The notes: generated from the sequence alone by a model not told the origin. DNA of 15,331 bases from a virus (IMGVR_UViG_2648501437_000028), one strand, 5' to 3'; positions 1 through 15,331 are shown, numbered from the stretch's first letter. Numbers and translations: made by a program.

Positions 1-165
1 ATGGCAAAGCCGATCATCACGCTCAATGGCCTAAAAATCGTCATTATGTTGGGAATGCTGGTCATTATTCTCTGCGGTATCCGTTTTGCCGCCGAGATCA
101 TCGTGCCGTTTATTCTCGCATTATTTATTGCTGTTATATATAACTTATTTCGCATAACACATTGA
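1..165 (+). pseudogene. tqsA: 5' fragment of tqsA (AI-2 exporter, YdgG); frame diverges after ~codon 45 and stops at 163-165, consistent with interruption by the inserted element
   Basis: Frame +1 from base 1 reads [45 protein letters not shown], which I recognise as the TqsA N-terminus, then IYNLFRITH-stop. Too short to appear in the ORF track. Confidence 0.55.
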
Positions 166-185
166 TTTAATTAAATAATTAACAC

Positions 186-233
186 CGCAAAAAGTGCCAA
201 AAATCGCAAAATGACTACACCAGTGACTACACC
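186..233. repeat. Phased A-tracts (CGCAAAAAGT GCCAAAAATC GCAAAAT) followed by tandem TGACTACACC x2 (212-221, 224-233)
   Basis: Read directly from the sequence; A5-6 tracts recur with 10-bp phase (bent-DNA signature), and a 10-bp direct repeat sits ~80 bp inside the inferred junction. Confidence 0.45.
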
Positions 234-251
234 GTTCGGTGCACTGTATGA

Positions 252-276
252 AACAACGTGGAACAAATAGACACAA
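252..276. promoter_or_regulatory. AACAA repeats phased at 10 bp (AACAACGTGG AACAAATAGA CACAA); the 15-mer AACAACGTGGAACAA is identical to 7715-7729
   Basis: Read directly; the same motif family recurs at 7713-7742 and, reverse-complemented, at 14021-14070. Confidence 0.45.
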
Positions 277-344
277 GAAATATACAGGCGGATCATCTTT
301 CCAGGGGGAAGCACACCAATTCATGAGGGGCGTTAATGTCGATA

Positions 345-609
345 TGGGGATCCCCACCTACCGGAATTTTTTTCCGGTTAAACGTTAATCAGGCTGGTGG
401 GCTTTACCTGTTCGGTAGGTGTTATGATTATCGTAATACCTTTCCCCCAATGGGGTAAAAGCATCAACCGTAACGAAAGTCGTTATGGTTGCCACTGATA
501 CCCCAAATTTGGGTATCACGAGTAAGCCCCAAAATCTGGGTGTTACTCTTACTACCCAAACTACGGGTAGTTTCCGTAGTTTCATGGTCGAGTTGCAGAT
601 CTGCAACTC
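345..609. repeat. Cluster of dyad symmetries: TGGGGATCCCCA (345-356), CCGGAA-T5-TTCCGG (361-377), CCCCCAATGGGG (444-455), GATACCCCAAATTTGGGTATC (497-517), CCCCAAAATCTGGG (527-540), CTACCC-AAACTAC-GGGTAG (552-570), GTAGTTTC x2 (567-583), perfect 20-bp palindrome GAGTTGCAGATCTGCAACTC (590-609)
   Basis: Read directly from the sequence; no ORF here has a credible start or composition. Confidence 0.5.
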
Positions 610-863
610 CCCCATTAACCACAGGCGAATTTCCGCCTTCGGTCATTCCTTAATCATCTGCGTAATCATAATGATTATTCAGCAAGCGCAATTTTGCGCT
701 TTGCTTAAAGTTCAGCGAGTTACCGCGCCGACTTCCTCAAATTGAGGTTTCCGAAAATATCAGCGGGTTAGCGATTAAGCTGACCATTAATTAAACTGCG
801 AAAATGTCGTAGTTGTGAGGGGTGTAGCCAACCCATTTTTGGGCCGTCGGGAATATCAACCAG

Positions 864-1145
864 TTACCGCCGCAACCGCTCCGGCTTCTTCCAGTGGTAC
901 GTTATTTTCTCCTTCTCCCGATACATCTCCACGCGGCGACGGTAGGCCAGCAACTCAAGAACTCTGGTTCGTATGTTGCGCATATCCACGCCATTAAGTT
1001 CTATACCATCACGGCGCATCACCTCAGCAACAACACGCGCATAGTTTTCGGCTGTCACGCTGTCCGGCTGCGTGGCCTGTTCGTCAGCCTGCTGGCTGAT
1101 TCCGGCAACGCGGCGGATTAATCCCGTTATTTCGGCTTCTGTCAT
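864..1145 (-). CDS. Hypothetical 93-aa protein, last gene of the packaging operon
   Basis: ORF track; ATG at 1145 preceded by GAGG; starts 13 bp after the terL stop. No recognisable motif. Confidence 0.5.
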   Translation of the reverse strand: MTEAEITGLIRRVAGISQQADEQATQPDSVTAENYARVVAEVMRRDGIELNGVDMRNIRTRVLELLAYRRRVEMYREKEKITYHWKKPERLRR

Positions 1146-1158
1146 GCTGCTGACCTCA

Positions 1159-2820
1159 TTACACCCCGCTAAATTCTTCCAGTTTCTGGCGGTGGCTGTC
1201 GCTTATATCAAAAGCAAAATCCTCATGCTCTGCCTGGAATGTACCAAACGCCATCAGCGCCGCCACGCTCGGGTCTATCTTGTTCGGTGATTTTTTCTTG
1301 TTCGGCTTGATATTGGCGTTCGCGTCACTCTGCATCACGACGTTACTCATCGACCAGGACAACACCGGATCGCCACGATGCACAATCACCCTGCGGTTAA
1401 CAAAAACTTCGAACGATTTCGCCGCCGGACTGAATCTGAGGTAGGTTTGCGGGAACGGCTCCACCTCAAAACCTGCCCCCTGTAATTGCGTTCTGAGATG
1501 CGTGGCGTTCCACGTATCAAAGCCCACCAGCCTGATATTAAATTTCTCCGCGTCCTGCATGATGTCATCTCTGATCCGGTCGTAATCAATGCAGTCGCCA
1601 GGCGTTGTGCGTATCCAGCCTGCTTTAGCCCACTGACGATAGATGGCGCGGTTTTTATTGGCGGGGTTCTGTAGCTGAAATTCCGGCAGATAGTGACGGG
1701 AAACCAGCATAATGGTTTTACCGACCGGAAAGGCATAGCACACGCTGGAAATATCGCTGGTTGATGATAAGTCCAGCCCCGCGTAACACTCCTGGCCGTG
1801 TAAATCTTCCTCCGTGAACGTTCCGGCACACTCAGCCCATGCGCCGTTACCCATCCACGGGGTAGCCCCCTGGCACCAGATATTAAATCGCTTTGTCATC
1901 ATCTCCACCCACTGCGACGGAATACCCCGCGCTTTCTGGATGGTTGAGGCCAGTTTTTCACGATCGACGGAAACATCAATATTAGGGTTCGCCTTTATCC
2001 ACATCGCCGGATCATCAACCTCGTTTTCGTCGTCCAGTTCGTAAATCAGTACAAAAATTGAATCGTTAACCTCTTCGCCGTCCAGGATCTGGCAGCAATA
2101 ATCATAGTGCTGCTTACAGGCTGAAACGACGTTGCTGCCTGATGTGGTAATGGCAAATAACAGCCCTTCGGGACGTGCGCCCATCCCCAGCTCAAGCGCG
2201 GAATAAACGCCGTTATCGGGGTGCAAGTGGTATTCGTCCACGATGGAAAGGCTGGGGTTTGTTCCCTCGATGGTTGCCGCTTTTGCTGCCAGCGGCTTTA
2301 ACAGGCTGTTGCTTTTCGGGTGTATCACCTTATGCGCCTGAATATTCACCCGCCTGCGTAACGGTCGGGATAAAAGGCACATCTGACGCGCATCATCAAA
2401 GACGATCCGCGCCTGGTCACGGCTCACCGCTGCGGTGTAGATATCCTGCTGACCGTTCTCCATAATCAGAAACCAGTTAGCCAGAATCGCGGCGGTCGTG
2501 GATTTCGCATTTTTGCGCGGCACTTCGATAAAGGCGCTCGTGTATTTGCGCCGTCCGGTGGCCTTAACCTTAAAGCCGAGGATGCACGCAAAGGCGAACT
2601 GCTGCCACGGCTCCAGCTCAATGGGTCTGCCACGCATCGGTCCTTTTACGTGCGGGCACACCCTGGAAAAGGCAATAAACCGCTCCACAACCTCACGATC
2701 GAACGTGTAAAGGGGGCTTTTAAGGTCCGAAAAGTACCGTTTAACGGCCTGTTTCAGCCGTTTACAGGCCGGAATTTTGCCCGTTTTTACGTCTTCTGCG
2801 TACTTATTCCAGGCGGTCAA
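1159..2820 (-). CDS. terL: Terminase large subunit (ATPase plus nuclease)
   Basis: 553 aa; Walker A-like PRKNAKST, Walker B-like LSIVDEYH, overall terminase-like layout. Start is TTG at 2820 with GAGGA 5 nt upstream, overlapping the terS end by 17 bp. Confidence 0.85.
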   Translation of the reverse strand: MTAWNKYAEDVKTGKIPACKRLKQAVKRYFSDLKSPLYTFDREVVERFIAFSRVCPHVKGPMRGRPIELEPWQQFAFACILGFKVKATGRRKYTSAFIEVPRKNAKSTTAAILANWFLIMENGQQDIYTAAVSRDQARIVFDDARQMCLLSRPLRRRVNIQAHKVIHPKSNSLLKPLAAKAATIEGTNPSLSIVDEYHLHPDNGVYSALELGMGARPEGLLFAITTSGSNVVSACKQHYDYCCQILDGEEVNDSIFVLIYELDDENEVDDPAMWIKANPNIDVSVDREKLASTIQKARGIPSQWVEMMTKRFNIWCQGATPWMGNGAWAECAGTFTEEDLHGQECYAGLDLSSTSDISSVCYAFPVGKTIMLVSRHYLPEFQLQNPANKNRAIYRQWAKAGWIRTTPGDCIDYDRIRDDIMQDAEKFNIRLVGFDTWNATHLRTQLQGAGFEVEPFPQTYLRFSPAAKSFEVFVNRRVIVHRGDPVLSWSMSNVVMQSDANANIKPNKKKSPNKIDPSVAALMAFGTFQAEHEDFAFDISDSHRQKLEEFSGV

Positions 2821-3160
2821 GCTCGTCCTCTTCTTCTGTTTCCGGTGGGTTTTTACGGCGGCTTATCGGGTCAAAACCGAGCAAGGAGGCCATTTTTATC
2901 ATCACCCTTTCAGCGTCTGATTTCGCGCTTAATGCGGGGTTTCTGCTCTCGCCGCCCTGACTGTTAACAATGCTGAACCCGCGCGCCGCAAGGTCTGCGA
3001 CGGCTTTCCGGTAAATGGAGTAGTTGACACAATACAGTTCCAGATTGCTCCAGTCGGCGGGGGTCAGGTCTCCCCGTTCCGCAAGCTGCCGCGATTTTTC
3101 CCGCCACTGCTTCACGGCGATGTCATCCAGGTAGGCGGGGGCTTTCGGTGGTCTTGCCAT
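2804..3160 (-). CDS. terS: Terminase small subunit (P27-like size and position)
   Basis: 118 aa directly upstream of and overlapping terL, downstream of HNH; acidic C-terminus. Assigned mainly by position and size. Confidence 0.6.
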   Translation of the reverse strand: MARPPKAPAYLDDIAVKQWREKSRQLAERGDLTPADWSNLELYCVNYSIYRKAVADLAARGFSIVNSQGGESRNPALSAKSDAERVMIKMASLLGFDPISRRKNPPETEEEDELDRLE

Positions 3161-3209
3161 GCTTATTTTTCGTCAGATTATTTTTCAAAAAATTCCCGTG
3201 CATAAAAAT

Positions 3210-3275
3210 TTGAGGAGGCGTTCGGTGCCCGGCGGGGTCGGGTTTGTCCTGAAAACGCCCCCCACCCCGTCATAC
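3210..3275. other. GC-rich block in the HNH-terS intergenic region; candidate cos / terminase recognition site
   Basis: GGTGCCCGGCGGGGTCGGG...ACGCCCCCCACCCCG lies in a ~290-bp gene-free gap between HNH and terS, where HK97-type cos sites sit. Position-based inference only. Confidence 0.25.
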
Positions 3276-3448
3276 AGCCTCATCAGCGATTGCGGAAACA
3301 TTCCATAACCTCGCGGTCACGGTCGGTTAATCGCTTCGCTGTGATGCGTTCTGCGCGTCCTGACGCTTTATCTTTATGCCCTGTTTCCTGTGTCTTCCAT
3401 GCGTCACGCTGCCTTATAAGTCCACGGATAAGGCGGTTTTGTTCCCGC

Positions 3449-3889
3449 TCATTCATCAGCGTCATACATCCAGTTATTGCGGTTAGCGGCCCGTTCTTCC
3501 TCTTCACGAAATCCACCTGCGGCACGCTTGCTTTTTGTTGCCGGATCAAGCCATTTCGTTTTCTGGTTATGACACGCCTGGCACAATGGTTGATGGTTCC
3601 ATTCGGGCCAGAAGAGAACATCATCACCGCCATTAATCGGGATAATGTGATCCACCACCACGGCGGGCGTATATATCCCCTTCTCAAGGCATCGCACGCA
3701 TAACGGGTTTTTACTCAGATACATGGCGCGGTATTTGTCCCACTGTCTGGAATATCCACGCGCGCGGCGGTGTCCTCGTCTGGCATCCTCTGCACGCCAT
3801 GCCGCCCGCCTGTGCTCCTCACACTTGCCGGATTTAACGCGCCTGTTACAGCCTGGTTCTGTGCATCGTCTTAATGGTTGCCACGGCAT
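3449..3889 (-). CDS. HNH endonuclease (packaging-associated)
   Basis: 146 aa; N-terminal Cys cluster CTEPGCNRRVKSGKCEEH and HNH core CVRCL...VVDHIIP...NHQPLCQACHNQK. Its ATG overlaps the connector stop. Confidence 0.85.
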   Translation of the reverse strand: MPWQPLRRCTEPGCNRRVKSGKCEEHRRAAWRAEDARRGHRRARGYSRQWDKYRAMYLSKNPLCVRCLEKGIYTPAVVVDHIIPINGGDDVLFWPEWNHQPLCQACHNQKTKWLDPATKSKRAAGGFREEEERAANRNNWMYDADE

Positions 3890-4185
3890 CAGTACACCCC
3901 CACATCACGGTAAGCCGTCCAGAGTGCGCCTATCGTCATGGGTACGCGTGTTTTTGCGTTATCCGCGACAATCTGGCGATTTTCATACAGGTGAGCGATA
4001 AACATCATGCAGCCAATCTTTATGGCTGGCGTGAACTCCAGCCCGTCATCAAAGCGCCTGCCTATGTGTATCTGGCACGCCTCAAGCGATGCGGCAATGT
4101 ATCCGCTGATTAACTGGTCTTCATCGTCGCCATCGATGCGGCAATGGAGTTTCACTTCTTCCAGGGTGATAAGTTCTTCTGTCAT
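3889..4185 (-). CDS. Head-tail connector (gp6-like) protein
   Basis: 98 aa between adaptor and HNH; ATGA overlap with the adaptor stop. Assigned by size, position and general resemblance. Confidence 0.55.
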   Translation of the reverse strand: MTEELITLEEVKLHCRIDGDDEDQLISGYIAASLEACQIHIGRRFDDGLEFTPAIKIGCMMFIAHLYENRQIVADNAKTRVPMTIGALWTAYRDVGVY

Positions 4186-4520
4186 TTTTCCGCGCCCTCA
4201 CGACAAAGAATTTCAAGGCGTGTCCTGGCGGCATCCGGCAGCGGCTGCCCGATGATATTCAGTACACGCCCCGCCAGCGGCCCCGTACTGACCTTTATCC
4301 GGCTGGTGGCGTTGATGTCCTTCCGGTACCGTATCCAGATCCTTACGGTACCAATCGCCAGCTCTGCGCCCGATGAAATGGCCTCCTTGCTGCTGACCAT
4401 GTTCACGCTTGCCCAGAGTGTGTGACCGTCCTCCCACGTTTCGAGTATTTCGCCGGTTATATCCCTGGTCTGTTTCAGGGTCTGAATCGTTATCCTGTCA
4501 CGCAGTCGCCCTATGTTCAT
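4182..4520 (-). CDS. Head-tail adaptor / head closure protein
   Basis: ORF track gives 4182-4562; I prefer the internal ATG at 4520, which overlaps the portal TGA (ATGA) and gives a ~112-aa product. Identity is by position after portal. Confidence 0.55.
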   Translation of the reverse strand: MNIGRLRDRITIQTLKQTRDITGEILETWEDGHTLWASVNMVSSKEAISSGAELAIGTVRIWIRYRKDINATSRIKVSTGPLAGRVLNIIGQPLPDAARTRLEILCREGAEK

Positions 4521-5728
4521 TCCGGTTTTTCTCCCTCGCTGATTTTTACTTCCTGTTTCCATGCCTGGCTGAACTCATCACCACCATCACGCGGTGACAG
4601 ACCTTCACGTTCGCGGGCTTCGTTCGGACACATAACGCCGGATTTGATGCCGCGCTCATAGGTGGCAAAGCGTTCGCCAGGTGTGGCCCGTAACAGGTCC
4701 GCGCTGTCAAACTCCACCTGATACCGGATACCAGGTACAGGCGAGGCCACCAGCAGGGCGTTTTTTATCTGCTGCTCAAAGTTCGCCAGCCACGGGCGCA
4801 TCGTCATGGTGAGAAATGCGCGGCTTGCCTCGCTGAAATTGCTGTAGGTGCTGTTGCTGTATTCCTGCAAAAAAATCGGCGAGACGTTGAACATTCGGGC
4901 GATGTCTTCAATGGTGAAGCGACGGGAGGCCAGCCATTCAGCATCCTGATTACTCATGCCCAGCTGCTGATAGCTCATACCCCCTTCAAGGATGGGCGTT
5001 TTTCCGGCGTTTCTGGCCCCTTTGTAGCGTTCCAGTGCGGCTAATGCCTGTTTGCCCTTCACGCCGTCCAGCCATTCGCCTGACGTGATAACCCCTGCCG
5101 CCATCATGCCATCACGCATCACGCTCGCGCCGTGGCGTTGTTGGGCCAGCCCAAGCCCCAGCGATTCGCGGCAGATGGTTACAGGTGAGCGCCCCATAAA
5201 GCCGTCATCCGTGGAGTAACGAAGGTGAAGTACTTCCCACGGTAAATAGTTGCGGGTGTTTCCGGTGTAGGCGTCAGTGATGCAGTAGCGCCAGTTGTGT
5301 TCGCCTGTCTGCTCCACGTTCACCGACTGCGGCGGGTAAGGATGTAAAGCCGCCGGAAAACCATCACGCCCCCACTGAATCACCGCATAAGCATTACCGT
5401 TTAACAGGCAGTGGCGGATCATCATTCGCTTAAACTGGTAGGGGGTTTGCCATGCGTTCGGGCGCTCGTTGAGGATGTGATCGACCGGATGAGAATCAAG
5501 CCACTCGCGGGCCTCCTTCCCCTTCTCATTGCGTACCAGGTACAGGTAACACGGCATGGTAGCCACCGCCTCAGAGATGACCGTCACGGCGTTCATGACG
5601 GCGGGCAGTGATTCCGCTGTCCCCGATGATACGTACTCACCCGCCCCCGTGTTCGATGTGCCAGCCAGCGCCATAAATTCATCCAGCGTCATGCTGCGCT
5701 GCTCTTTTTTTCTTCTGAAAGGCCACAT
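4517..5728 (-). CDS. Portal protein, HK97-like
   Basis: 403 aa, typical portal length and composition; GGGGGTG Shine-Dalgarno 5 nt before the ATG at 5728; immediately follows the protease. Confidence 0.8.
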   Translation of the reverse strand: MWPFRRKKEQRSMTLDEFMALAGTSNTGAGEYVSSGTAESLPAVMNAVTVISEAVATMPCYLYLVRNEKGKEAREWLDSHPVDHILNERPNAWQTPYQFKRMMIRHCLLNGNAYAVIQWGRDGFPAALHPYPPQSVNVEQTGEHNWRYCITDAYTGNTRNYLPWEVLHLRYSTDDGFMGRSPVTICRESLGLGLAQQRHGASVMRDGMMAAGVITSGEWLDGVKGKQALAALERYKGARNAGKTPILEGGMSYQQLGMSNQDAEWLASRRFTIEDIARMFNVSPIFLQEYSNSTYSNFSEASRAFLTMTMRPWLANFEQQIKNALLVASPVPGIRYQVEFDSADLLRATPGERFATYERGIKSGVMCPNEAREREGLSPRDGGDEFSQAWKQEVKISEGEKPE

Positions 5729-5729
5729 A

Positions 5730-6302
5730 TCACACCCCCGCTAAATCCACCCACCAGCGGCGATTATCCGCACGCGGCATTTTTTCGGGGTGCTGCTCAT
5801 ACAGGGAACGGCGGGCCAGCTCCACGCCGGAATCGGGGTAAGCCGGTACCGATGTAACGGTAATTTCGTACAGTTCCGCCACCAGCACGGTGCGCACGCA
5901 TGGATCTGTTGTGGTATCCCATACATCCTTACGGGAGCGAAAGCCAAAGCTCATCCCCGAGATGTCCCCACGCTTAACCAGTTCGATAACGTCGCGCCCT
6001 GTACTGGTATCCGGTGGGGTCAGTTCAAAGCGTAACCCTGTTTCGTCCTCTTCCAGTTTCAGCGTGCCGGAACGGGTGCGCCCCAGTAACATGCTGTGGT
6101 CATGCTCATACAGGCCGCGAACGTCATTACCCGCCGCAAGCCACTCAGTAAACGCCCCCCGCTGGAATTTTTCGTGAAACTCCCCCCATAGCAGTTCTGA
6201 AAGCTTATCCCAGCGAACAACGTAGCCCGTCAGCGTACCGGCTCCGCTGGTAGTGATTTCCGATGACCGGATTTCCATACTCTTCATAATTTTTTCACCC
6301 AT
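5730..6302 (-). CDS. Prohead maturation protease, HK97 family
   Basis: 190 aa with the HK97-protease-like stretch GDISGMSFGF and conserved His/Ser context. Start could be 6302 or the internal ATG at 6287. Confidence 0.8.
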   Translation of the reverse strand: MGEKIMKSMEIRSSEITTSGAGTLTGYVVRWDKLSELLWGEFHEKFQRGAFTEWLAAGNDVRGLYEHDHSMLLGRTRSGTLKLEEDETGLRFELTPPDTSTGRDVIELVKRGDISGMSFGFRSRKDVWDTTTDPCVRTVLVAELYEITVTSVPAYPDSGVELARRSLYEQHPEKMPRADNRRWWVDLAGV

Positions 6303-6341
6303 AAAACACTAAAGGGGCTTTTAAGCCCCTTCTGTATGCTG

Positions 6342-7499
6342 TTAATCGTCGTCCTGTGGCAGTTCCAGAATCTTGATCGCGTTCGAATCCACCACGCCAC
6401 CGCCTAAATATTTCTGCGTGAAAATTTTGATGAAGCCCGGCTCTGTGAGGTTGTCCGGTCTGGTGCGAACACCTGTTTCGTGATCAACAATGTAGTAACC
6501 GCGTTTGAAGTCACCCAGGGCAATAACGTTATCCGGCATAAACTCCAGATATTCGACCGGAAGGCCCAGTAACGTATCAGGATCACCCGCCTGTAAACGG
6601 TCGCGCCAGATGTAATCACCGTTCGCGTTCTTCACCTTCTGAAGTTTTGCCGCCGTCGTGGAGTTAACCACCCAGACCGCGTTTTTGCGGTATTTTTTAC
6701 GTAATGCAAATTTCAGGTCGATCAGCGGGTCCGCAGATGTCCACGCCAGAGATTCGGAAGGTTTAATTACCTGCAACGTACCAAAATCACGCTCTTTGTC
6801 GTTCTTCTCTGCACGGGGTACGGATAAAAAGCCTTTTGCTTTTTTGTCACCGTCGCCCACAACCAGATCGCTTTCTTCGGTTTCCGTGAAGTTGTCGCCA
6901 ATCTCGCCCGTCAGCCATGAAAGGATGTCCACATCGGAAAAATCCACGATTTCCTGCGTGGTGCGCGGGTACGCATAGACCGGATACAGCTTAATGCTCA
7001 CCTCGTTAATCTGCGGGGTGCTGGTCTGTTCGCGTGCCTTACCCTCTTCACCGTGGTTAACGGTCGCACCGCCAGCGGAAACAAGCTGCTTAAACTCGTT
7101 GCTGCTGATTTTCTTCACGGTACAGATGCGGCGCATGGTGGATTCATCCGTCAGCATTCGCATGATTTCGGTGTTCAGTTCGGGGATAACGGTATAACCA
7201 CCATCAGCGGGAACGCCTGTACTTAATGCGCGGGTTTCACCTGTCAGAATGTAGTGACGTAGTTCGGCTGGGTCAGTGGTCTGACTGCTTTTACCTGGCT
7301 TGCTGCGCTCTTCGTCTGCAATGGCTTCAAGGCGGGAAATGTCTTTATCGAGGGATTCAGCTTTAGCGCGTAATTCGTCAAATTTTGCGCCCTCAGCATC
7401 GTTAAGACTGCGGTTTTCTTTTTCCGCGTTCTCCAGCATGTCGCGCATCTGATTTTTAATGGCGGTTTTCTGCTGGCGTAATTCGATTATTCTCGGCAT
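6342..7499 (-). CDS. Major capsid protein, HK97 fold, with N-terminal coiled-coil delta/scaffold-like domain
   Basis: 385 aa; charged, coiled-coil-like N-terminal ~100 aa (LRAKAESLDKDISRLEAIADEE) then a capsid-like body; no separate scaffold gene. Confidence 0.85.
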   Translation of the reverse strand: MPRIIELRQQKTAIKNQMRDMLENAEKENRSLNDAEGAKFDELRAKAESLDKDISRLEAIADEERSKPGKSSQTTDPAELRHYILTGETRALSTGVPADGGYTVIPELNTEIMRMLTDESTMRRICTVKKISSNEFKQLVSAGGATVNHGEEGKAREQTSTPQINEVSIKLYPVYAYPRTTQEIVDFSDVDILSWLTGEIGDNFTETEESDLVVGDGDKKAKGFLSVPRAEKNDKERDFGTLQVIKPSESLAWTSADPLIDLKFALRKKYRKNAVWVVNSTTAAKLQKVKNANGDYIWRDRLQAGDPDTLLGLPVEYLEFMPDNVIALGDFKRGYYIVDHETGVRTRPDNLTEPGFIKIFTQKYLGGGVVDSNAIKILELPQDDD

Positions 7500-7712
7500 A
7501 AAAAAAGTCCTGGGGTTAAGTAAGGAACTCCAGGACGCGGCAAAAACTCAACCGTTTTTCATAAGGAAATCAGCAATCGCACCGATCGTTTTCCCGCCTG
7601 GTAATGAATATTGGCGAGAACATTAACAGGCGGAAAAGTGGCCCCAGCGTCCTGGCACCACGGGCGAGAATAATCATGATTCAGTTCGGGTAAAATATGC
7701 CGATCCGCTCAG

Positions 7713-7742
7713 TGAACAACGTGGAACAACCACGAACAAATA
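7713..7742. promoter_or_regulatory. Three 10-bp units GAACAACGTG GAACAACCAC GAACAAATAA upstream of the capsid operon
   Basis: Read directly; shares the 15-mer with 252-266; lies between the terminator after the PerC-like gene and the capsid leader. Confidence 0.45.
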
Positions 7743-7761
7743 ATTTACAAAACATGACAAA

Positions 7762-7779
7762 AAGCCGGATTGCTCCGGC
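7762..7779 (-). terminator. Probable intrinsic terminator after the PerC-like gene
   Basis: AGCCGGA-TTGC-TCCGGCT stem-loop followed on the minus strand by TTTTTGT. Confidence 0.5.
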
Positions 7780-7786
7780 TGTGTGA

Positions 7787-8059
7787 TTATCTGTCCTGGT
7801 AATTTCGCCATATTTCATTACCAGCACCATCCATACCCATTTCGGCATAAGTGCGATCGACCGCCTTTTTCAGGTCTCCGTAGTTATCCGGCGGCTCCGG
7901 TGGCCTCTGTGCCTTCCTGGAACATTCCAGCCGTCGCATCGTGATGTGATGCCGTTCCTTGTCTGTCTCCACCAGTTGCATGACTTCACCCCATCGCGCC
8001 GACGCTCTCCGGTAAAAGCCTTTCGCCTCCAGTTCTTCCGCTATGCGGTCATGTACCAT
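7787..8059 (-). CDS. PerC-family transcriptional regulator-like protein
   Basis: About 90 aa from the ATG at 8059 (the track start at 8068 is GTG); AEELEAKGFYRRASARWGEVM resembles the PerC/Pch N-terminal signature; GAGGGGTGGGG Shine-Dalgarno upstream. Confidence 0.6.
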   Translation of the reverse strand: MVHDRIAEELEAKGFYRRASARWGEVMQLVETDKERHHITMRRLECSRKAQRPPEPPDNYGDLKKAVDRTYAEMGMDGAGNEIWRNYQDR

Positions 8060-8071
8060 CGTCCCCACCCC

Positions 8072-8482
8072 TCAGAACGGAATATCATCACCGTAAGGGT
8101 CATCGCCTCCCGCTGGTGGCTGATTACCCTGTGTGCCTGTGGTCTTGCGTCGGCTCCCACCAGGACGTGCCGCACGGGCACTGATTACGCTGTCTGCAAT
8201 AACCTGATAACCCTGCCGCGTTTCCCCGTTCTGTCCGGTCCACTGGCTGACCTGCATCGTGCCGGATACGCTGGCAACGTCGCCTTTTTGATGTTTAGCC
8301 AGGAAGTCGGCCTGCTTACCAAATGCGATGACCGATAGCCATAACGTCGCCTGTCCATCCTGTGCCTGGCTGCATGGCAGCGATACCGCCATACGCGCCA
8401 GCGTCATCGGTGTACCCTTGCTGGTCTGTTTTACCTGCGGGTCGTCCACCAGCCGCCCGTAAGCTGCTATCTGTGCTGTCAT
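8072..8482 (-). CDS. ssb: Single-stranded DNA-binding protein
   Basis: 136 aa; Gly/Pro/Gln-rich tail ending in the acidic DDIPF motif characteristic of SSB; ATGA overlap with the upstream gene. Confidence 0.8.
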   Translation of the reverse strand: MTAQIAAYGRLVDDPQVKQTSKGTPMTLARMAVSLPCSQAQDGQATLWLSVIAFGKQADFLAKHQKGDVASVSGTMQVSQWTGQNGETRQGYQVIADSVISARAARPGGSRRKTTGTQGNQPPAGGDDPYGDDIPF

Positions 8483-8757
8483 GATTCCACCTCTCCGGTT
8501 TTAACGTTGATGGTTGTTACCTGTTCCGCTTCGGCAATCTCCCGCTCTGTCAGCGTGGCAAAATTTGCCGCCGTCGTGGTCATGAATGCGCTTATCAGTT
8601 CGGGATGTGCTTTCGCGTATCCTTCCCCCGCGTGGCGGTCTATCGTTCTGATTGCCACCTTTAAAGCGTGCTCTGTCATGTCTAACGCGCGATATTTCGG
8701 TTCTGTTCTGTCTCTGCGTTTTTTGAGTGATTTATTAAATTTCCCTGAAGTGTGCAT
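8479..8757 (-). CDS. Hypothetical 92-aa protein, first gene downstream of the putative ori
   Basis: ORF track; ATG at 8757 preceded by GAGGGGG; stop overlaps the ssb start. Confidence 0.5.
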   Translation of the reverse strand: MHTSGKFNKSLKKRRDRTEPKYRALDMTEHALKVAIRTIDRHAGEGYAKAHPELISAFMTTTAANFATLTEREIAEAEQVTTINVKTGEVES

Positions 8758-8804: not shown

Positions 8805-9030
8805 TTGTCTACCTTATCTACCTTAGTGGCCCTCATACCAGTAATGGCGCGGCTTTCAGCGGGGTAGAGTGCTTTTATCCACTATCTACCCCGTGTCTAC
8901 CTCCCTGTCTGATTCAGGTAAAATCAGGTAGAGAGGGTAGATAGTGGGTAGACAGTAAAAAAAGGTTATCTACCTAACTTAATGCACTGAATTAAATGTA
9001 TTTTTCTTTACTCAGGTAGACAGGGTAGAC
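8805..9030. repeat. Iteron array (about 12 copies of GGTAGAC/GTCTACC-type 7-8-mers in both orientations) with flanking AT-rich stretches; putative replication origin
   Basis: GTCTACC 8805, TATCTACC 8813, GGTAGAG 8861, TATCTACC 8881, GTCTACC 8893, CAGGTAGA 8923, GGGTAGAT 8933, GGGTAGACAG 8944, TTATCTACC 8964, CAGGTAGACAGGGTAGACAG 9011-9030; lies immediately 3' of the primase gene. Confidence 0.6.
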
Positions 9031-9045
9031 AGCAATTACAAAAAA

Positions 9046-10800
9046 TTATAAAAACGCGTCGCACTCGTCTGTTGTTATTGCGTTAGTCTGCGTTACTCCC
9101 TTAACTTTCCGCGTAATATATTCATGTCCGTAAACTTTCGCGGCTGGCTTCATAGCCTTGCCAAAGTCATTTACGTTTAGCGGTTTGCTCCTGCCTGCGT
9201 ACGCCATAAACGCCAGATAGACGCGGTAAAGGCTGTTTCTGGTCGTGTACTTCACTGAATCGCCACCGCCGCCCATCATCAGGCCGCGTGCTTCCTCCAG
9301 AAAATTCAGGAACTGGCAAAACTCAATAACCGGATCCGTCTGTTGCTTTATTGCCAGAGCTTCATCACCGTCACGCTGTTCCAGTAGTAAAGCCCGTGCC
9401 TTCTCAGGGTCGGTAAAGTTCGCCAGCAATCGGCGGATAATGACAGGGATTTCAGCCGCGATCTTTTCCGGTAGCTCCCTGTCTTTTTCGGCCTCACTGA
9501 CGATATTGTCGAAACGGAAAATCACGCGACGACGTGCCACACCTCCGGCCCGTTCGGTGAATATCATCGGGTTATTGTTGGTCGCCAGCACCACCGCCCT
9601 GATTACCGCCGTGAAACGCTTTTCGTATTTCGGGTTAATTTCCACGGGGTCACCGCCCGTGATTTTCTTGATGCCCGTTCCTTCGCCTGTATATTTCGGC
9701 TGGTCAGCCAGGACGATAAGACGACTCCCGACAACCTGCGCACGTCCACCAGCATCATCAAGCGATGTCATTTCAGCGCTTACCGTGTTCTGTTTCCCTG
9801 CCAGAAGGCTGGCTATGTGTGTGAATGTACTTTTACCGCTCCCGCCGTCTCCGGTGGCCTCAATAAACATCTGCCAGTCGTACCGGTTCGCCATAATCAT
9901 GTACAGCGCGGCACATATACGCATCATCTTGCGCGGGTCTTTTCCGGCTGCGTGCTCAAGCCATTTATGAAAGTTTGGCGCGTTATCGCGGATGTTCTCC
10001 CCTGGTGCTGGTGGCGTGTACTCAATGCCGTTGTGCGTGGTGATCCAGTTCTCCGGCGTGTGCGGGGAAAATTCCCCCGTTTTCAGGTCAAGCGCACCAT
10101 TGGCGAACGGCAACAAATCGCCGGACGGCTCGCCCATTGGTTCGGCAATAACTTTTAACGCTTCCACGGCGTTATTGATTACGCGCTTGCTGAAAGTGGC
10201 CCTGTGCTCTGAATAGATCGCCACCATTTCGCGGCTAAGTTCCATTGTGCTGACCGGACACCATACCCCGCCGCGCCATACGTGAACGATTTCACTTTCA
10301 GGATGTACGCAAACGCCATCAAAGCGATCGGCAAGCAGCTGCGCGCGCTCACTGTCCGCCATCTGCGAAAGTTGCGCCTTTTGCTTTACCGGAAGCTCAA
10401 TGACCAGACCATCAGAAAGATTCTGGCGCTCACGGGCCAGATATTCGCGCCAGTTCTCCACCTTCTGACCGTGCATACCATCAGGGTAAAAATTTGCATC
10501 CTGTACGCCTGCCGCCGCCAGCTTCTGACCAATCGCCTTTATCATTACTGGCGCAAGATATCCGGCCCTGAATATGCGCACGGATTTTCTGCCTTCCGGC
10601 ACAATTTGCAGCTTATCCAGTTCGGATAACTGCTGCTCCCCAAGCCACACAGGAGGCTCATTATCTCCGGCCATACGCGCGTCATGTTCCTGCCATTGTT
10701 TTGCGTGTGACCAGGCATCACTACCCGCAAAAATAATGACTTCTGTTTCTTTGTGTTTTATGCCGCGTGACTGCTGTTTTACGTTCGGTGCCAGTTTCAT
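9046..10800 (-). CDS. Primase/helicase, P4-alpha-like (TOPRIM-like N-terminus plus SF3/D5-type NTPase)
   Basis: 584 aa; Walker A GDGGSGKST, Walker B-like LIVLADQ; N-terminal acidic primase-like segment; ATGA overlap with the upstream gene. Confidence 0.8.
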   Translation of the reverse strand: MKLAPNVKQQSRGIKHKETEVIIFAGSDAWSHAKQWQEHDARMAGDNEPPVWLGEQQLSELDKLQIVPEGRKSVRIFRAGYLAPVMIKAIGQKLAAAGVQDANFYPDGMHGQKVENWREYLARERQNLSDGLVIELPVKQKAQLSQMADSERAQLLADRFDGVCVHPESEIVHVWRGGVWCPVSTMELSREMVAIYSEHRATFSKRVINNAVEALKVIAEPMGEPSGDLLPFANGALDLKTGEFSPHTPENWITTHNGIEYTPPAPGENIRDNAPNFHKWLEHAAGKDPRKMMRICAALYMIMANRYDWQMFIEATGDGGSGKSTFTHIASLLAGKQNTVSAEMTSLDDAGGRAQVVGSRLIVLADQPKYTGEGTGIKKITGGDPVEINPKYEKRFTAVIRAVVLATNNNPMIFTERAGGVARRRVIFRFDNIVSEAEKDRELPEKIAAEIPVIIRRLLANFTDPEKARALLLEQRDGDEALAIKQQTDPVIEFCQFLNFLEEARGLMMGGGGDSVKYTTRNSLYRVYLAFMAYAGRSKPLNVNDFGKAMKPAAKVYGHEYITRKVKGVTQTNAITTDECDAFL

Positions 10801-11096
10801 TTTTTACCCCTGAATCCGTTAATCATGGTTTTCAGCTTCTGGATGTTTGCCCGTGCCCTGGCGTTGCTGGTGGACACGTTATGCGGCGCGGTCTGTACCA
10901 GAGAAAAATCACGCCGGAACTGATAAACAGGCATCACGCAATCATATTCGTAACCTTCACGGCGGTAGGTTACGCGCCGTTCTTCCACGCCCTTAATCAT
11001 TACCGTGCCGCCGTACTGGTCGCGGTAAATATCGCCGCGCGTAAATTTAGGGTGAGTGTTGCCACTGGCAGTTAAGCCAGAATATTTAAGTTTCAT
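10797..11096 (-). CDS. Hypothetical 99-aa protein, translationally coupled to the primase
   Basis: ORF track; GGAGA Shine-Dalgarno before the ATG at 11096. Confidence 0.5.
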   Translation of the reverse strand: MKLKYSGLTASGNTHPKFTRGDIYRDQYGGTVMIKGVEERRVTYRREGYEYDCVMPVYQFRRDFSLVQTAPHNVSTSNARARANIQKLKTMINGFRGKK

Positions 11097-11101
11097 TATT
11101 T

Positions 11102-11335: not shown

Positions 11336-11401
11336 GGCTTACATCCTCAGGAAATTTTCTTCTATAACGCGCCTCTGCCACATATTCCGCATAATCGGCG
11401 G

Positions 11402-11560: not shown

Positions 11561-11918
11561 GTTTACCCCCCTGAATGACCTGATAACCGCAACTGGTCAG
11601 CAACTCGATAAATTCCGGCAGTGTGCCGAAACAGCAATCATCACGCAGCCGTTCACAGGATACCTCGACGCCGTTTTCGTAGTGACTCACCATACATCCG
11701 GTAAAATGCAGATCATCATCGTGATGGCTCGTTGACGGCTTAATCAGTCGCGCACGTTCCGCCAGTTCCAGCAATGCTTCAACGCTTCCGGCAATTGCAC
11801 CATCCGGCAGGTGATAATTACGCACTATGCGCCCGTTCTCCACATTGACCAGCAACTGCCCGGTAAATTTCTCATCAAACTGAATGCTGTTAAGGTCAGA
11901 AATTGACAGATTATGCAT
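11553..11918 (-). CDS. Hypothetical ~121-aa protein
   Basis: ORF track gives 11553-11936; the internal ATG at 11918 has a perfect AGGAGG 7 nt upstream and overlaps the upstream stop. Confidence 0.5.
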   Translation of the reverse strand: MHNLSISDLNSIQFDEKFTGQLLVNVENGRIVRNYHLPDGAIAGSVEALLELAERARLIKPSTSHHDDDLHFTGCMVSHYENGVEVSCERLRDDCCFGTLPEFIELLTSCGYQVIQGGKHA

Positions 11919-12351
11919 GGTGCACCTCCTGCACATCAGCCATGATAATTTTTCCGGCCTTATCCAGTGCCTGATCGGCTTTTAGCTGCACAAATGCTAA
12001 ATGGAAGATGCATTCTGATTCTCTGGCTGCGTGTTTATGCGCCCTGTCAGCAATAACAGAAATATCAATAAGCGCGTGCATCAGCGTAGTGAGCGCGGCG
12101 GCGGCTGCGTCCGGTGTGGTTTTATTGCACATGTACCCCTCCGCATTTTTTTCGTTAGAAATAAGCGTTCTTCTTTCCTGTTCATCGCTCAGGAATACGC
12201 AGACCTCACCGCTAAGGCGTTTAAGTAAGCCGATGATTGCCCCTGATTCGCTGTCGGTCATCATGCTAGGGTAATCCTCTGCCAGTGCGCAAATAACTTC
12301 GATTTGGTGGGCGCGTTCTGCTGCCTGTTGTAGTGTGATTTCCTGGCTCAT
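11911..12351 (-). CDS. Hypothetical 146-aa protein
   Basis: ORF track; ATGA overlap with the upstream 66-aa ORF. Confidence 0.5.
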   Translation of the reverse strand: MSQEITLQQAAERAHQIEVICALAEDYPSMMTDSESGAIIGLLKRLSGEVCVFLSDEQERRTLISNEKNAEGYMCNKTTPDAAAAALTTLMHALIDISVIADRAHKHAARESECIFHLAFVQLKADQALDKAGKIIMADVQEVHHA

Positions 12352-12548
12352 AAGCCTACCCCCTGACGAATACGGGCAGCAAATACCATCACGCAGCCAG
12401 CCGGAGATTGCTGGCGTGCTTCCTGTTCGCTGGTGGCCTCAATGGTAATCACGCGCGGTTGTGCCGTGCTCAGGGCGATAAAACGCCAGATGTATTTATT
12501 CAGGTTGTGCGAGTCCCGCCCTTGCGGGTGTGTGGTATGATTTCTCAT
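12348..12548 (-). CDS. Hypothetical 66-aa protein, first gene of the leftward operon
   Basis: ATG at 12548 preceded by GAGGTAG; it is the 3' part of the 384-aa track ORF, whose upstream extension I reject. Confidence 0.45.
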   Translation of the reverse strand: MRNHTTHPQGRDSHNLNKYIWRFIALSTAQPRVITIEATSEQEARQQSPAGCVMVFAARIRQGVGL

Positions 12549-12583
12549 AGCTACCTCGATACTCTCGTTATCGTTGGTGGTTA

Positions 12584-12724
12584 GAAGCCCCGTTACTGCT
12601 CCAACAGTGCGGGGCTTCGTCGTTTCAATTGCTGAATTGCATGTATCAGCACTTGTGGTATTCACATTACATTTAGGTGAATACCATTTCAAGTCTTTTT
12701 TGGTATTCACTTTTGTATTACACT
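12584..12724. promoter_or_regulatory. Divergent control region: long hairpin GAAGCCCCG...CGGGGCTTC (12584-12618) and operator-like repeats TGGTATTCAC-N11-GTGAATACCA (12656-12686), TGGTATTCAC (12701-12710), GTATTACAC (12715-12723)
   Basis: Read directly; lies between the start of the leftward operon (12548) and the start of the RHH gene (12754). Confidence 0.5.
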
Positions 12725-12753
12725 GCATCCCGTTATTAATGGGAGGTGCAAAC

Positions 12754-13059
12754 ATGTCCAGGAGTTCTGTTAACAATAAGTCACAGCAACTGAATGCCAG
12801 ATTTCCACATGAAGTAGTGAGTGGCATTGAGGCATCCCTACAGTCAGGGGAAACTAAAGCGAATTTTATAGTTACGGCTGTACGCGGTGAGATCGCCCGG
12901 CGCCAGGCAGAAGGAAGTGGAGAAAATCCCCTGGTTTCTTCGCTCGATGCACTGGCGCAGGTGGAAAAACTCGGAATCAAAGCCGCCGAGGAGATCGGGC
13001 AGCTCGTCACTGTCGCACGTGAAGAACTCCAGCGCCGCAAGACCAAAGAACCAGAGTAA
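12754..13059 (+). CDS. Ribbon-helix-helix (CopG/Arc/MetJ-like) DNA-binding protein; candidate repressor of the switch
   Basis: 101 aa from the ATG at 12754 (GGGAGGTG Shine-Dalgarno); N-terminal NARFPHEVVSGIEASLQSGETKANFIVTAVRGEIARR fits a beta-strand/helix/helix pattern; the track ORF starts further upstream at 12574. Confidence 0.55.
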   Translation: MSRSSVNNKSQQLNARFPHEVVSGIEASLQSGETKANFIVTAVRGEIARRQAEGSGENPLVSSLDALAQVEKLGIKAAEEIGQLVTVAREELQRRKTKEPE

Positions 13060-13116
13060 TCACCATCAGCGCCGTGGTGTAAGGTATTACGGCGCATTGC
13101 TATGCAGGACAACACA

Positions 13117-13290
13117 ATGACCGATAAAGAATTGACCAAAACATTATCACCGGCACGGAAAAGACGGCGCAGAAAGATAGAGCATGAATCAGAAAGATTC
13201 GCGCCATGTGCTTTTGCCCTTGAGCAATTCCTTAAAGAGTACAGGGAAAAGCGCTCATTGCAGGTATGGCAACGAACTGAACCAGACTGA
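13117..13290 (+). CDS. Small, highly basic 57-aa protein
   Basis: ATG at 13117 with AGGAC upstream (track ORF starts at 13102); contains the RKRRRRK run; function unknown. Confidence 0.4.
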   Translation: MTDKELTKTLSPARKRRRRKIEHESERFAPCAFALEQFLKEYREKRSLQVWQRTEPD

Positions 13291-13385
13291 TTGCATTGCC
13301 CACCAGCCTGATAACGGCTATCATCCCCGTGCTTATGTTTGGGATCACACACACAAACGGCGCAGCGGGTTATCTGTTCAGAAAG

Positions 13386-13413
13386 GCGGCTCCATTTCGG
13401 GGCCGCTTTTTTT
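13386..13413 (+). terminator. Intrinsic terminator, possibly bidirectional, between the convergent plus-strand pair and alpA
   Basis: GCGGCTCC-ATTTC-GGGGCCGC stem (one G-U pair) followed by TTTTTTT on the plus strand; A-run on the other side. Confidence 0.6.
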
Positions 13414-13559
13414 ATACCTGAAAAACCCCAATTTTGTTGTTTTTCAGTTTCACCAGGGCGAACGAATCCCCGCCCACGTTCTGGCGTATATTCAATCTTC
13501 ATGGTTATAGCTCTGTGTTCAGATGATTGATGTGTGGCGGCTGCGTGCCGCCAGCGTGA

Positions 13560-13748
13560 TTAATGAACTGCCTTGCAGCTATCCTTCCAGGCCAGAACCT
13601 CGGATAAAGACCAGCCAACGGAACGACCGCCAAGTTTACGACGTGATGGGAATTGTCCGGCCTTTTCCAGGCGGTAGCGACACGTACGGCTAAGGCCGGT
13701 TAGTTTTTCGCATTCTTTTTCACGTATAAACCGATCAGTGCTTAACAC
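13560..13748 (-). CDS. alpA: AlpA/Vis-family (excisionase-like) regulator
   Basis: LTGLSRTCRYRLEKAGQFPSRRKLGGRSVGWSLSEVLAWK matches the AlpA-type winged-HTH pattern. I prefer the GTG start at 13748 (AGGGGGG 5 nt upstream, ~62 aa) over the track TTG start at 13829. Confidence 0.7.
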   Translation of the reverse strand: MLSTDRFIREKECEKLTGLSRTCRYRLEKAGQFPSRRKLGGRSVGWSLSEVLAWKDSCKAVH

Positions 13749-14020
13749 TATTGCCCCCCTTTCGTTTCTTAAAGAGTCATCAGGTGTCTTATTGTGTCGT
13801 ATTGTTCCCGCTAGAGTGATGAATGGCAAATACTGAGGATGTATGATTTACAGAAAATGAAACAGTAAGAATAAAATCTTTTAAATTCATGTTAATACAA
13901 AGGCATAAAATATTGTTCCATGCCTTTTTTCTCGCTCTTTAAAGAGTGATTCGCTAGTGTACAAAAAACCAGTAACACATTAAAAATCAGCTACTTATAA
14001 ATCCGTACGCTTTTTCGCCT

Positions 14021-14070
14021 CTTGTTCGTAGTTGTTCCACATTGTTGCTCATTGTTGCACGTTGTATCTG
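14021..14070. promoter_or_regulatory. Five TTGTT-containing 10-bp units in tandem (CTTGTTCGTA GTTGTTCCAC ATTGTTGCTC ATTGTTGCAC GTTGTATCTG)
   Basis: Read directly; TTGTTCCAC is the reverse complement of the GTGGAACAA core at 258-266 and 7721-7729; located in the int-alpA intergenic region. Confidence 0.5.
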
Positions 14071-14080
14071 TTCGCATATC

Positions 14081-14096
14081 CAGTATGCGCATACTG
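14081..14096. promoter_or_regulatory. Perfect 16-bp palindrome CAGTATGCGCATACTG just 3' of the int stop
   Basis: Read directly; no T-tract on the side that would make it an int terminator, so more likely a protein-binding site. Confidence 0.35.
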
Positions 14097-14113
14097 AAAA
14101 AACACGAAAAAAA

Positions 14114-15331
14114 TTATTTTCTTCTGGCTACGGGTAGCGTGGTTACGTTTTCATGTGTTCCCGCCAGTATCCCTAACCGCTCCGTCCACATATCCAGCGC
14201 ATTGCGTTTCGCATCCAGATAACGGGAATGATTATAAACTCGCTGCATTCCTGGCATCTGGTGGCCTGTAAGCTGCTCCACGACATGCGGATCAACGCCT
14301 AAATCGTTCAGCATGGTTGTAAAGGTGCGCCGGATGTCATGCAGTGACCAGTGAGGGTGATTAAGCCTCCTGTGCGCTAATCTTCCATACTGCGATACGC
14401 TGGCCTCCTGTTTCACTTCCCCCAGCAATAAGCCCGTGTGCCTGTTCTGCTCCACCAGCTGCGTGACGAACGGCAGGATCGCTTCCGGTATGGGCCGGAA
14501 TATTGCGACCTTCGTTTTGCTGTGCTCCTTCGGAACGGTCCATAGCATTTCCGTAAAATCCCACTCCCCGATCTCCGATAACCTCAGTTCTACCGTTCTG
14601 GCTCCGAAGACAATCAGGAGGCGGATTAACGCGACGTAGTAAGGGGAGAATATTTTTTTGTCCAGTGCCTGCAATAATTCGCCAAGTTCTTTGTTACTTA
14701 AGACACGTTCGCTTATATCCGGTTTTTTCCCAACGTCCGCAACGTTCAGATCGTCCAGAACGTTGCTGATTGCATAGCGCCGCCTACGGCAGAACTTAAG
14801 CGCCTGTTTGCACGCCTGTAGCACGAATCCGGCAGTAACAGGCGTTCGCTTTGCCACCTGGTCAAAACAGGCCAGCCAGTGCCGTAGCTCGCATTTATCC
14901 AGCGGCATAGCACCAATCTGCTGTATTACGTGATTATTAAGTCGCCTTTTCAGGGCGATATAATCCACGCGGTTTTCCTTTACGTAATACTCAAGCCAGT
15001 AGGTGAGCGCATCGCCAACCGTTACGGGCTTTAACGCTTCCTGTACGGTGTAATTCATCTCATGACGTGGATTTTTCCCCTCAGCCAGCCATGTGCGACA
15101 CTGTGCGGCTTTTTCCCTGGCTGCTTTCAGGCTCAGATCAGGATAACTTCCCAGCTTAATGCGTTCGGGTCGTGTCTCCCTTCCCGTTCCGGCCCTGTAT
15201 GTGAAATACCAGGTCAATTTCCCTGATGTTAAATATTTCACGCTCAGGTTTCCGCCATCACTATAAAACGTGTTTTTCTCCGCTGGCTTACCATGAAGTT
15301 TCCTTAGCAAGGTATCGCTCAGTTTGTTCAT
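14114..15331 (-). CDS. int: Tyrosine integrase (P4-like phage integrase family)
   Basis: 405 aa; C-terminal catalytic signature HDIRRT ... H ... RVYNHSRY (R, H-x-x-R, Tyr nucleophile); ATG is exactly at the window end. Confidence 0.9.
   Translation of the reverse strand: MNKLSDTLLRKLHGKPAEKNTFYSDGGNLSVKYLTSGKLTWYFTYRAGTGRETRPERIKLGSYPDLSLKAAREKAAQCRTWLAEGKNPRHEMNYTVQEALKPVTVGDALTYWLEYYVKENRVDYIALKRRLNNHVIQQIGAMPLDKCELRHWLACFDQVAKRTPVTAGFVLQACKQALKFCRRRRYAISNVLDDLNVADVGKKPDISERVLSNKELGELLQALDKKIFSPYYVALIRLLIVFGARTVELRLSEIGEWDFTEMLWTVPKEHSKTKVAIFRPIPEAILPFVTQLVEQNRHTGLLLGEVKQEASVSQYGRLAHRRLNHPHWSLHDIRRTFTTMLNDLGVDPHVVEQLTGHQMPGMQRVYNHSRYLDAKRNALDMWTERLGILAGTHENVTTLPVARRK

Follow-up and report, generated by a model that had tools for sequence, protein, structure and literature searches.

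The stretch IMGVR_UViG_2648501437_000028, recorded as viral DNA and 15,331 nucleotides long (below, the window always means this whole stretch), is E. coli chromosome, and its first base opens the ATG codon of the host gene tqsA. The gene is split by an island that is very probably a capsid-forming phage-inducible chromosomal island (cf-PICI) of the EcCIEDL933 lineage. EcCIEDL933, the published cf-PICI prototype, lies between roxA and phoQ in the EDL933 chromosome (locus L002), and we compared it directly with the window. Convincing genes are all on the minus strand, with the exception of the start of tqsA and one small island gene on the plus strand. The integrase and the features of the left attachment site (att) are the following:

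1–137, plus strand: 5′ fragment of tqsA (autoinducer-2 transporter), the host gene split by the island; labelled truncated tqsA in near-identical genomes
129–137: attL core TGCTGTTAT, 9 bp; repeated at attR (23392–23400 in the locus of strain SCU-204, L001)
212–233: tandem TGACTACACC, two copies, likely arm-type integrase site; a matching tandem lies ~130–150 bp inside attR (L001 23242–23264)
14114–15331, minus strand: tyrosine integrase with Arm-DNA-bind_3 and Phage_integrase domains; 91% identical to EcCIEDL933 Int

In strain SCU-204, a near-identical island (99.7–99.9% over aligned blocks) sits between the two halves of tqsA, with mdtJ and ydgV on one side and pntB on the other. Strain 09-02E has the same arrangement of tqsA halves and host flanks. 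When the flanks are joined via a single core, the resulting 297 nt are 100% identical to the intact tqsA of other genomes. This exact reconstruction of the empty site, together with the 9-bp direct repeat, means that the island is a discrete insertion of ~15.39 kb, integrated site-specifically by the tyrosine integrase via the 9-bp core. Among 5,426 complete E. coli genomes, 5,169 have an uninterrupted tqsA site, and 150 contain 80% or more of the window, which we counted as presence at the tqsA site. No tRNA or tmRNA was found in the window, and the insertion is therefore not tRNA-targeted. A literature search pairing tqsA with phage-inducible chromosomal islands (PICIs) returned no papers, the contents of published attB and cf-PICI tables being outside that search.

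A first-pass annotation of the window had proposed inspecting the flanks for att repeats and for tail genes. The att direct repeats are present, and directly outside the island stand host genes, with no tail or lysis genes. The annotation had also named tail and lysis genes beyond the window as an observation that would speak against a satellite; the near-identical copies are instead flanked by tqsA halves and host genes. The extent it gave, 136–15331, needs correcting at both ends, since the left edge is the att core at 129–137 and the right edge lies outside the window. As seen in SCU-204, the attR core is located ~188–196 nt beyond position 15331, and the annotated start codon of the integrase is 12 nt past the window end. 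Judging by the near-identical genomes, this exact copy is presumably complete at its right end.

The tandem 10-bp repeats inside both att arms are probably arm-type sites, to which the integrase would bind. EcCIEDL933 carries the variant TTAACTACACC, in two copies, at both of its ends (L002 20283–20307 and 35511–35531). The two islands differ in their cores (TGCTGTTAT in tqsA versus GGACATATTT in the roxA/phoQ intergenic region), yet the arm sequences beside the core are conserved despite the different cores and the 91%-identical integrases. Substitutions relative to EcCIEDL933 Int are concentrated in the N-terminal arm-binding/core-binding third of the integrase.

The right-to-left late operon encodes a head and packaging module. 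Its features, with identities to EcCIEDL933, are given below:

6342–7499, minus strand: major capsid protein, HK97 fold, with an N-terminal scaffold (delta) domain of ~92 aa; PF05065 Phage_capsid at residues 100–379
5730–6302, minus strand: HK97-family S78 prohead serine protease; PF04586, E = 3.6e-48; 184/190 identical
4517–5728, minus strand: portal; PF04860, E = 2.5e-90; 400/403 (99.3%) identical
4182–4520, minus strand: head-closure/head-tail adaptor, SPP1 gp16 family; PF05521, TIGR01563; 108/112 (96.4%) identical
3889–4185, minus strand: gp6-like head-tail connector; PF05135, TIGR01560; 97/98 (99%) identical
3449–3889, minus strand: HNH endonuclease, terminase-associated cos-cleavage cofactor; PF01844; 145/146 identical
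3283–3465, minus strand: 60-aa protein, by gene order EcCIEDL933 gene 1792; phrog_3173; 60/60 identical
3161–3282: candidate location of the cohesive-end (cos) site, an intergenic gap of 122 bp before terS, proposed by analogy with HK97-type cos phages
2804–3160, minus strand: small terminase TerS, P27 family; Terminase_4, E = 1.3e-23; 118/118 identical
1159–2820, minus strand: large terminase TerL, TTG start; TerL_ATPase and TerL_nuclease domains; 546/553 identical
864–1145, minus strand: 93-aa protein, last gene of the late operon; phrog_1561 (unknown-function family), E = 2.9e-56; homologue 87% identical

The capsid protein is identical at 382 of 385 positions to PDB entry 9GYI, the cryo-electron microscopy (cryo-EM) structure of the EcCIEDL933 capsid (10.1101/2025.02.11.637232). 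Its SxGxxAD cleavage motif is found at S93–D99, the position at which the mature EcCIEDL933 capsid protein starts (10.1101/2025.02.11.637232), and the PF05065 match begins at residue 100. The scaffold-like domain that had been proposed to be fused to the capsid protein fits both observations. The HNH, TerS and TerL set (PF01844, PF05119, PF03354 and PF20441) is 98.7–100% identical to that of EcCIEDL933. None of the head and packaging genes is frameshifted or truncated relative to this functional prototype. The concern that the capsid and terminase genes might be decayed remnants of a full prophage is not borne out, as all are full length.

In HK97-type cos phages, the gene order is HNH-cos-terS. 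By analogy, the cos site of the island may lie in 3161–3282, between terS and the small gene downstream of HNH; cf-PICI DNA is known to have cohesive ends (10.1101/2025.02.11.637232). Two terminator-like hairpins stand out on the minus strand, one directly 3′ of the capsid gene (6332–6311) and the other directly 3′ of perC (7780–7763). They were the only convincing candidates in a promoter and terminator scan that revealed no enrichment relative to shuffled sequences. The hairpin after the capsid gene could raise the ratio of capsid protein to downstream products.

The window island and EcCIEDL933 have their genes in the same order all the way from int to the end of the late operon, and both measure ~15.4 kb (core to core, ~15.39 kb versus ~15.46 kb). 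The length of ~15.39 kb agrees with the published size of the EcCIEDL933 genome, 15.4–15.5 kb, which a T=4 head can accommodate. In nucleotide sequence, the two islands are 97.4% identical over 852–7785, 93% over 7759–8733 and 95% over 13062–15328. At the protein level, the packaging module is full length and 96.4–100% identical (99.2% for the capsid protein), and AlpA, TerS and the 60-aa homologue of gene 1792 are fully identical.

EcCIEDL933 itself has been characterized by genetics, electron microscopy and cryo-EM (10.1101/2022.09.08.507074, 10.1101/2025.02.11.637232). It is induced by helpers HK106 and HK446 in an alpA-dependent manner, and an alpA mutation abolishes both induction and transfer (10.1101/2022.09.08.507074). 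Its small capsids are encoded by the island, each capsid and packaging gene being needed for the island's own transfer and not for that of the helper, while transfer requires helper tail genes; loss of gene 1792 severely reduces transfer (10.1101/2022.09.08.507074). The heads are T=4 particles of 47.5 nm diameter that hold a 15.5-kb genome, and tail-less heads are released and can join tails of other phages, the tail fit being set by the adaptor and connector proteins (10.1101/2025.02.11.637232).

We assigned the class by setting the results of Pfam, PHROGs and NCBIfam scans against the published SatelliteFinder core list, according to which cf-PICIs have 11 core components and tails and holins are forbidden (PMC10085698). 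SatelliteFinder detected 969 cf-PICIs, which were reported in 13% of Enterobacteriaceae genomes (PMC10085698). All 11 core gene classes are full length in the window island (Pfam, NCBIfam). The integrase, AlpA, primase-helicase, single-stranded-DNA-binding protein (SSB) and capsid/packaging set listed in the first-pass annotation are all present and intact. Among the annotated and longer open reading frames (ORFs) of the window, none belongs to a tail or lysis family in Pfam, PHROGs or NCBIfam. The ten remaining hypothetical ORFs, all small, had no match to tail, holin or endolysin families in PHROGs and matched only its unknown-function or transcription-regulation families; nor did these ten proteins match any PADLOC defence model. 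Two unannotated minus-strand ORFs, of 70 and 76 aa (145–357 and 385–615), were outside the scan, and it is for the scanned ORFs that the predicted absence of tail and lysis genes holds. An autonomous tailed prophage would be expected to carry such genes, and none was found in the ~15.4 kb between the att sites.

The element is of an already known kind, a close variant of EcCIEDL933. The predicted lifestyle, in which the element would build and fill its own small capsids and take only tails and lysis from a helper phage, is supported by near-identity to EcCIEDL933, on which the cf-PICI family was defined. By the same analogy, this copy is expected to depend on a helper. Nothing in the sequence data of the window is at odds with its being a cf-PICI.

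The head and packaging genes are phage-derived, and two small early genes carry 1-nt deletions relative to sister copies. Such features could also be seen in the immobile remnant of a full HK97-like prophage after loss of the tail and lysis modules, an origin that we consider very unlikely. In a decayed remnant, one would not expect head and packaging genes to be full length and 96–100% identical to a functionally tested element, or the element to have exact att boundaries in tqsA and host genes as its immediate neighbours. With AlpA, an Icd-like protein and a P4-type primase, the early half is like that of PICIs and P4, not lambdoid. Moreover, the compact architecture recurs. The packaging module is present in 410 of the 5,426 complete E. 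coli genomes, including one 100% identical copy, and the head-only gene order is found in other genera as well (Citrobacter, Erwinia and Gilliamella), where the ORFs scanned downstream of TerL include no tail genes. A Shigella copy has the matching gene order, in a comparison made on gene order only, its downstream ORFs lying outside the scan. In the phage collection, capsid matches above 58% identity are mostly records of 15–16.5 kb, plus a 3.8-kb fragment. Full-size phages reach at most 40% capsid identity, the sole exception being Klebsiella phage P12620-1.

The remainder of the island encodes replication, regulatory and early functions:

13560–13748, minus strand: AlpA regulator, the inducer switch in Gram-negative PICIs; PF05930, E = 1.5e-16; 62/62 identical to EcCIEDL933 AlpA
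12754–13059, plus strand: YlcI/YnfO-family protein, 101 aa, the only plus-strand gene of the island; phrog_6522 over its full length, NF041551
12348–12620, minus strand: Icd-like protein, labelled transcriptional repressor in PHROGs; phrog_6196, E = 1.9e-54; NF033153
11102–12351, minus strand: small early genes; PHROGs unknown-function families
10797–11096, minus strand: DUF4222 protein; PF13973, E = 1.6e-24
9046–10800, minus strand: primase-helicase replication initiator, 584 aa; D5_N, DUF5906 P-loop, Pox_D5, TIGR01613 and a P4-alpha-type C-terminal domain
8805–9032: predicted replication origin just 3′ of the primase-helicase gene; ten GGTAGAYAG iterons, five per orientation, around an AT-rich spacer
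8479–8757, minus strand: 92-aa protein; phrog_1231
8072–8482, minus strand: SSB; PF00436; 134/136 (98.5%) identical to EcCIEDL933
7787–8059, minus strand: PerC-family transcriptional activator homologue; PF06069, E = 4.6e-43; 86% identical to the EcCIEDL933 homologue

The primase-helicase matches PDB entries 7ola (E = 3.8e-15) and 1ka8 (E = 7e-7). The latter is the C-terminal domain of the P4 primase, which we take to be the origin-binding domain of P4 alpha. Allowing at most one mismatch, GGTAGAYAG has 12 matches in the window, 10 of them within 8805–9032, where 3.2 per window would be expected by chance; none of 200 shuffles reached 12. The iteron cluster that the first-pass annotation had placed beside the primase-helicase is thus real, and its position next to the replication (rep) gene suggests that it functions as the origin. 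This part of the island departs from the prototype. Only the first ~140 aa of Rep are shared with EcCIEDL933 (82% identical), and the rest is of the D5/P4-alpha type (584 aa in total) versus the DUF927 type (710 aa). Similarity of the origin region to EcCIEDL933 was not detected. The recombination joint falls within the replication gene (window 9046–10800, L002 24039–26171). Exchange of left-half modules between PICI families has already been reported (PMC10085698).

Overall, the left half resembles that of classical E. coli PICIs (EcCICFT073 type) and P4, which likewise have a tyrosine integrase, AlpA, an Icd-like protein, DUF4222, a P4-family primase-helicase with an adjacent origin, and SSB. 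Given the integrase, AlpA, Icd-like gene, P4-family primase C-terminal domain and presumed P4-alpha origin-binding domain (1ka8) held in common, we considered whether the island might be a P4-like satellite or a classical PICI, forming no capsids of its own and packaged in helper-made ones. This is scarcely credible. Classical PICIs and P4 use helper capsid proteins and the helper terminase, whereas the window island encodes a complete head/packaging set with its own capsid protein, protease, portal, adaptor, connector and TerL. According to SatelliteFinder, the cf-PICI portal, connector and adaptor are forbidden in classical PICIs (PMC10085698). In addition, no match labelled Sid, Psu, Delta, Epsilon or Rpp (capsid-size or packaging redirection, helper control) was obtained in the Pfam and PHROGs scans.

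A domesticated head module that packages host DNA like a gene transfer agent has a negligible chance of being correct: the closest solved capsid after 9GYI is indeed that of the Rhodobacter gene transfer agent (6tb9/6tba, E ~1e-46), but the island has an integrase, att sites, its own predicted replication origin, an HNH/TerS/TerL set and, among the scanned ORFs, no tail genes, its presence is strain-variable (150 of 5,426 genomes at tqsA) instead of marking a fixed locus, and cf-PICI DNA is packaged with cohesive ends (10.1101/2025.02.11.637232).

Several observations nevertheless weigh against the assignment to EcCIEDL933-type cf-PICIs. Experimental support comes from EcCIEDL933 only, while the present copy is known from its sequence. 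Its replication module and origin differ from those of the prototype, and its competence to replicate is presumed. Two 1-nt homopolymer deletions distinguish it from two sister copies (A5 versus A6 at 11455 and T7 versus T8 at 12146); one cuts short an early gene of 77 aa, and through the other a pair of small genes becomes a single 146-aa ORF (11911–12351). Both may be artefacts of sequencing or genuine defects. No cos site was located, and the lambda-type cosN GGGCGGCGACCT, with at most three mismatches allowed, is no commoner in the window than expected by chance. The window also lacks the last ~190 bp of the island, which include the integrase start codon and attR. Finally, the record of Klebsiella phage P12620-1 (H28, PQ569648.1, 106.5 kb) has a 64.6%-identical capsid gene near its end.

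If the island is a cf-PICI, its life cycle could proceed as follows. It would lie silent in the chromosome, where the tyrosine integrase has placed it via the 9-bp core, the one step demonstrated here. By analogy with EcCIEDL933, whose AlpA is identical, a helper siphovirus would turn on alpA, leading to excision and expression. Its anatomy suggests that the P4-alpha-like primase-helicase would then replicate the excised circle from the adjoining iteron origin. The late operon would yield the HK97-fold capsid protein, and removal of its N-terminal scaffold at Ser93 by the S78 protease would give T=4 heads of ~47 nm for ~15.4 kb of DNA. The island's HNH, TerS and TerL would cut and package its DNA at its cos site, and the head-closure and connector proteins would complete the portal vertex. 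The helper would supply tails and lysis, and released tail-less heads might also take up compatible tails outside the cell. We propose the steps from capsid formation onward because the published experiments used proteins 96–100% identical to those of the island.

Other enterobacterial cf-PICIs (EcCIGN02175 and KpCIDSM30104 in the literature; in our comparison, loci from Citrobacter, L006, Erwinia, L007, Gilliamella, L008, and E. coli ST648, L018) share the head-only architecture of pri, capsid, protease, portal, adaptor/connector, HNH, TerS and TerL. They are more distant from the window island, with capsid identity of 66–74% and divergent adaptor and connector proteins of tail specificity, and their attachment sites and cargo differ. 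HK97 shares with the island the HK97-fold capsid with a cleaved N-terminal delta domain, the S78 protease and an HNH-dependent cos terminase. However, sequence identity to HK97 is low and the gene order is different, the island's capsid gene standing ahead of those for protease and portal, opposite to the arrangement in HK97; moreover, the island is without tail, lysis and lysogeny-control modules. The heads differ too, since those of cf-PICIs are T=4, versus T=7 for HK97, and have no covalent cross-link (10.1101/2025.02.11.637232). Records of 15–16.5 kb deposited as phages, including H27 (LR881103.1, 16.5 kb) and H30 (OR544139.1, 15.3 kb), have capsids 59–66% identical to that of the window. 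These records are of satellite size and are probably cf-PICIs filed as phages.

The interest of cf-PICIs lies in their tail-less, DNA-filled heads, which dock onto tails of different phages and thereby carry genes across species boundaries. Biology of this kind has already been published for an almost identical element. What the window adds is modest: a common variant in which the conserved head/packaging module is joined to another integrase specificity and another replication module. As such, it exemplifies the modular exchange among PICI families already described in the literature.

Several smaller features of the early and regulatory region deserve mention. The PerC homologue is encoded immediately upstream of the capsid operon. 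In pathogenic E. coli, proteins of the PerC family (Pch) regulate a virulence island, the locus of enterocyte effacement (LEE). EDL933 has a 74-aa gene between perC and the capsid gene that the window copy lacks. The Icd/YlcI segment of the window copy also differs from EcCIEDL933. Part of it (12627–13019) is mosaic, being unlike the sister tqsA copies; segments 99.8% identical to it are found in other E. coli genomes, at differing positions. The sister copies carry one to three Icd-like repeats in this mosaic immunity-like segment. A 384-aa minus-strand ORF at 12348–13502 was rejected as a real gene, as family matches are confined to its C-terminal ~90 aa (the Icd-like protein) and its central part overlaps the YlcI/YnfO gene on the plus strand.

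At the other end of the island, the ~720 bp that separate attL from the last late gene contain no convincing ORF. Two kinds of repeated structure are found there:

440–640: cluster of five or six palindromes/hairpins with a conserved core at 492–614; fold z-scores of -8.6 (minus strand) and -10 (plus strand), far better than shuffled sequence
708–870: three repeat units of ~48 nt with ATCARCNNGTTA, some with a small internal hairpin; the last copy overlaps the stop codon of the 93-aa gene

The cluster includes a perfect 20-bp palindrome, GAGTTGCAGATCTGCAACTC, at 590–609. It occurs about once per genome in 713 of the 5,426 E. coli genomes. At the four homologous loci that we examined, it lies just downstream of a homologue of the 93-aa gene that closes the late operon, and each time this is the att-distal end of a PICI; classical PICIs account for three of these loci and another cf-PICI for the fourth. 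A mobile repeat of the MITE (miniature inverted-repeat transposable element) or REP (repetitive extragenic palindromic) type was rejected, given roughly one copy per genome and a location restricted to PICI ends. The core at 492–614 is missing from EDL933, and the cluster is absent from both EcCIEDL933 and the Shigella copy, so it is not essential for cf-PICI transfer. The cluster is not part of the core cf-PICI machinery. EcCIEDL933 does have the ~48-nt repeats, in five to eight copies at the matching position (L002 34745–35182). An Rfam scan of the whole window found nothing at E <= 0.1, and an alignment of five homologues of the cluster shows too little variation for covariation to separate RNA structure from DNA palindromes.

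The palindromes at 440–640 and the ~48-nt repeats at 708–870 might together represent an undescribed cis-acting DNA site or small RNA module, with the cluster shared and swapped among classical and capsid-forming E. coli PICIs, an idea that we regard as speculative and rather unlikely to be right. Possible roles of this att-distal end include control of read-through from the late operon, interaction with a helper protein, or a second packaging or anti-helper site. If the idea were true, then, in combination with the swapped Rep/origin and the tqsA att specificity, the copy might differ from EcCIEDL933 in helper range or interference.

Two further E. coli loci concern the surroundings of classical PICIs. 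In O157 strain FDAARGOS_293 (L016 7668–9448) and in PK8275 (L017 4153–6542), a classical PICI ends directly against a prophage late gene that is truncated. One of the truncated genes encodes a lambdoid terminase gpA without its N-terminus, and the other is a prophage major capsid gene, also lacking the N-terminus, with an abortive-infection gene in between. With the boundaries being putative, this suggests that at both loci satellites have inserted inside prophage morphogenesis genes.

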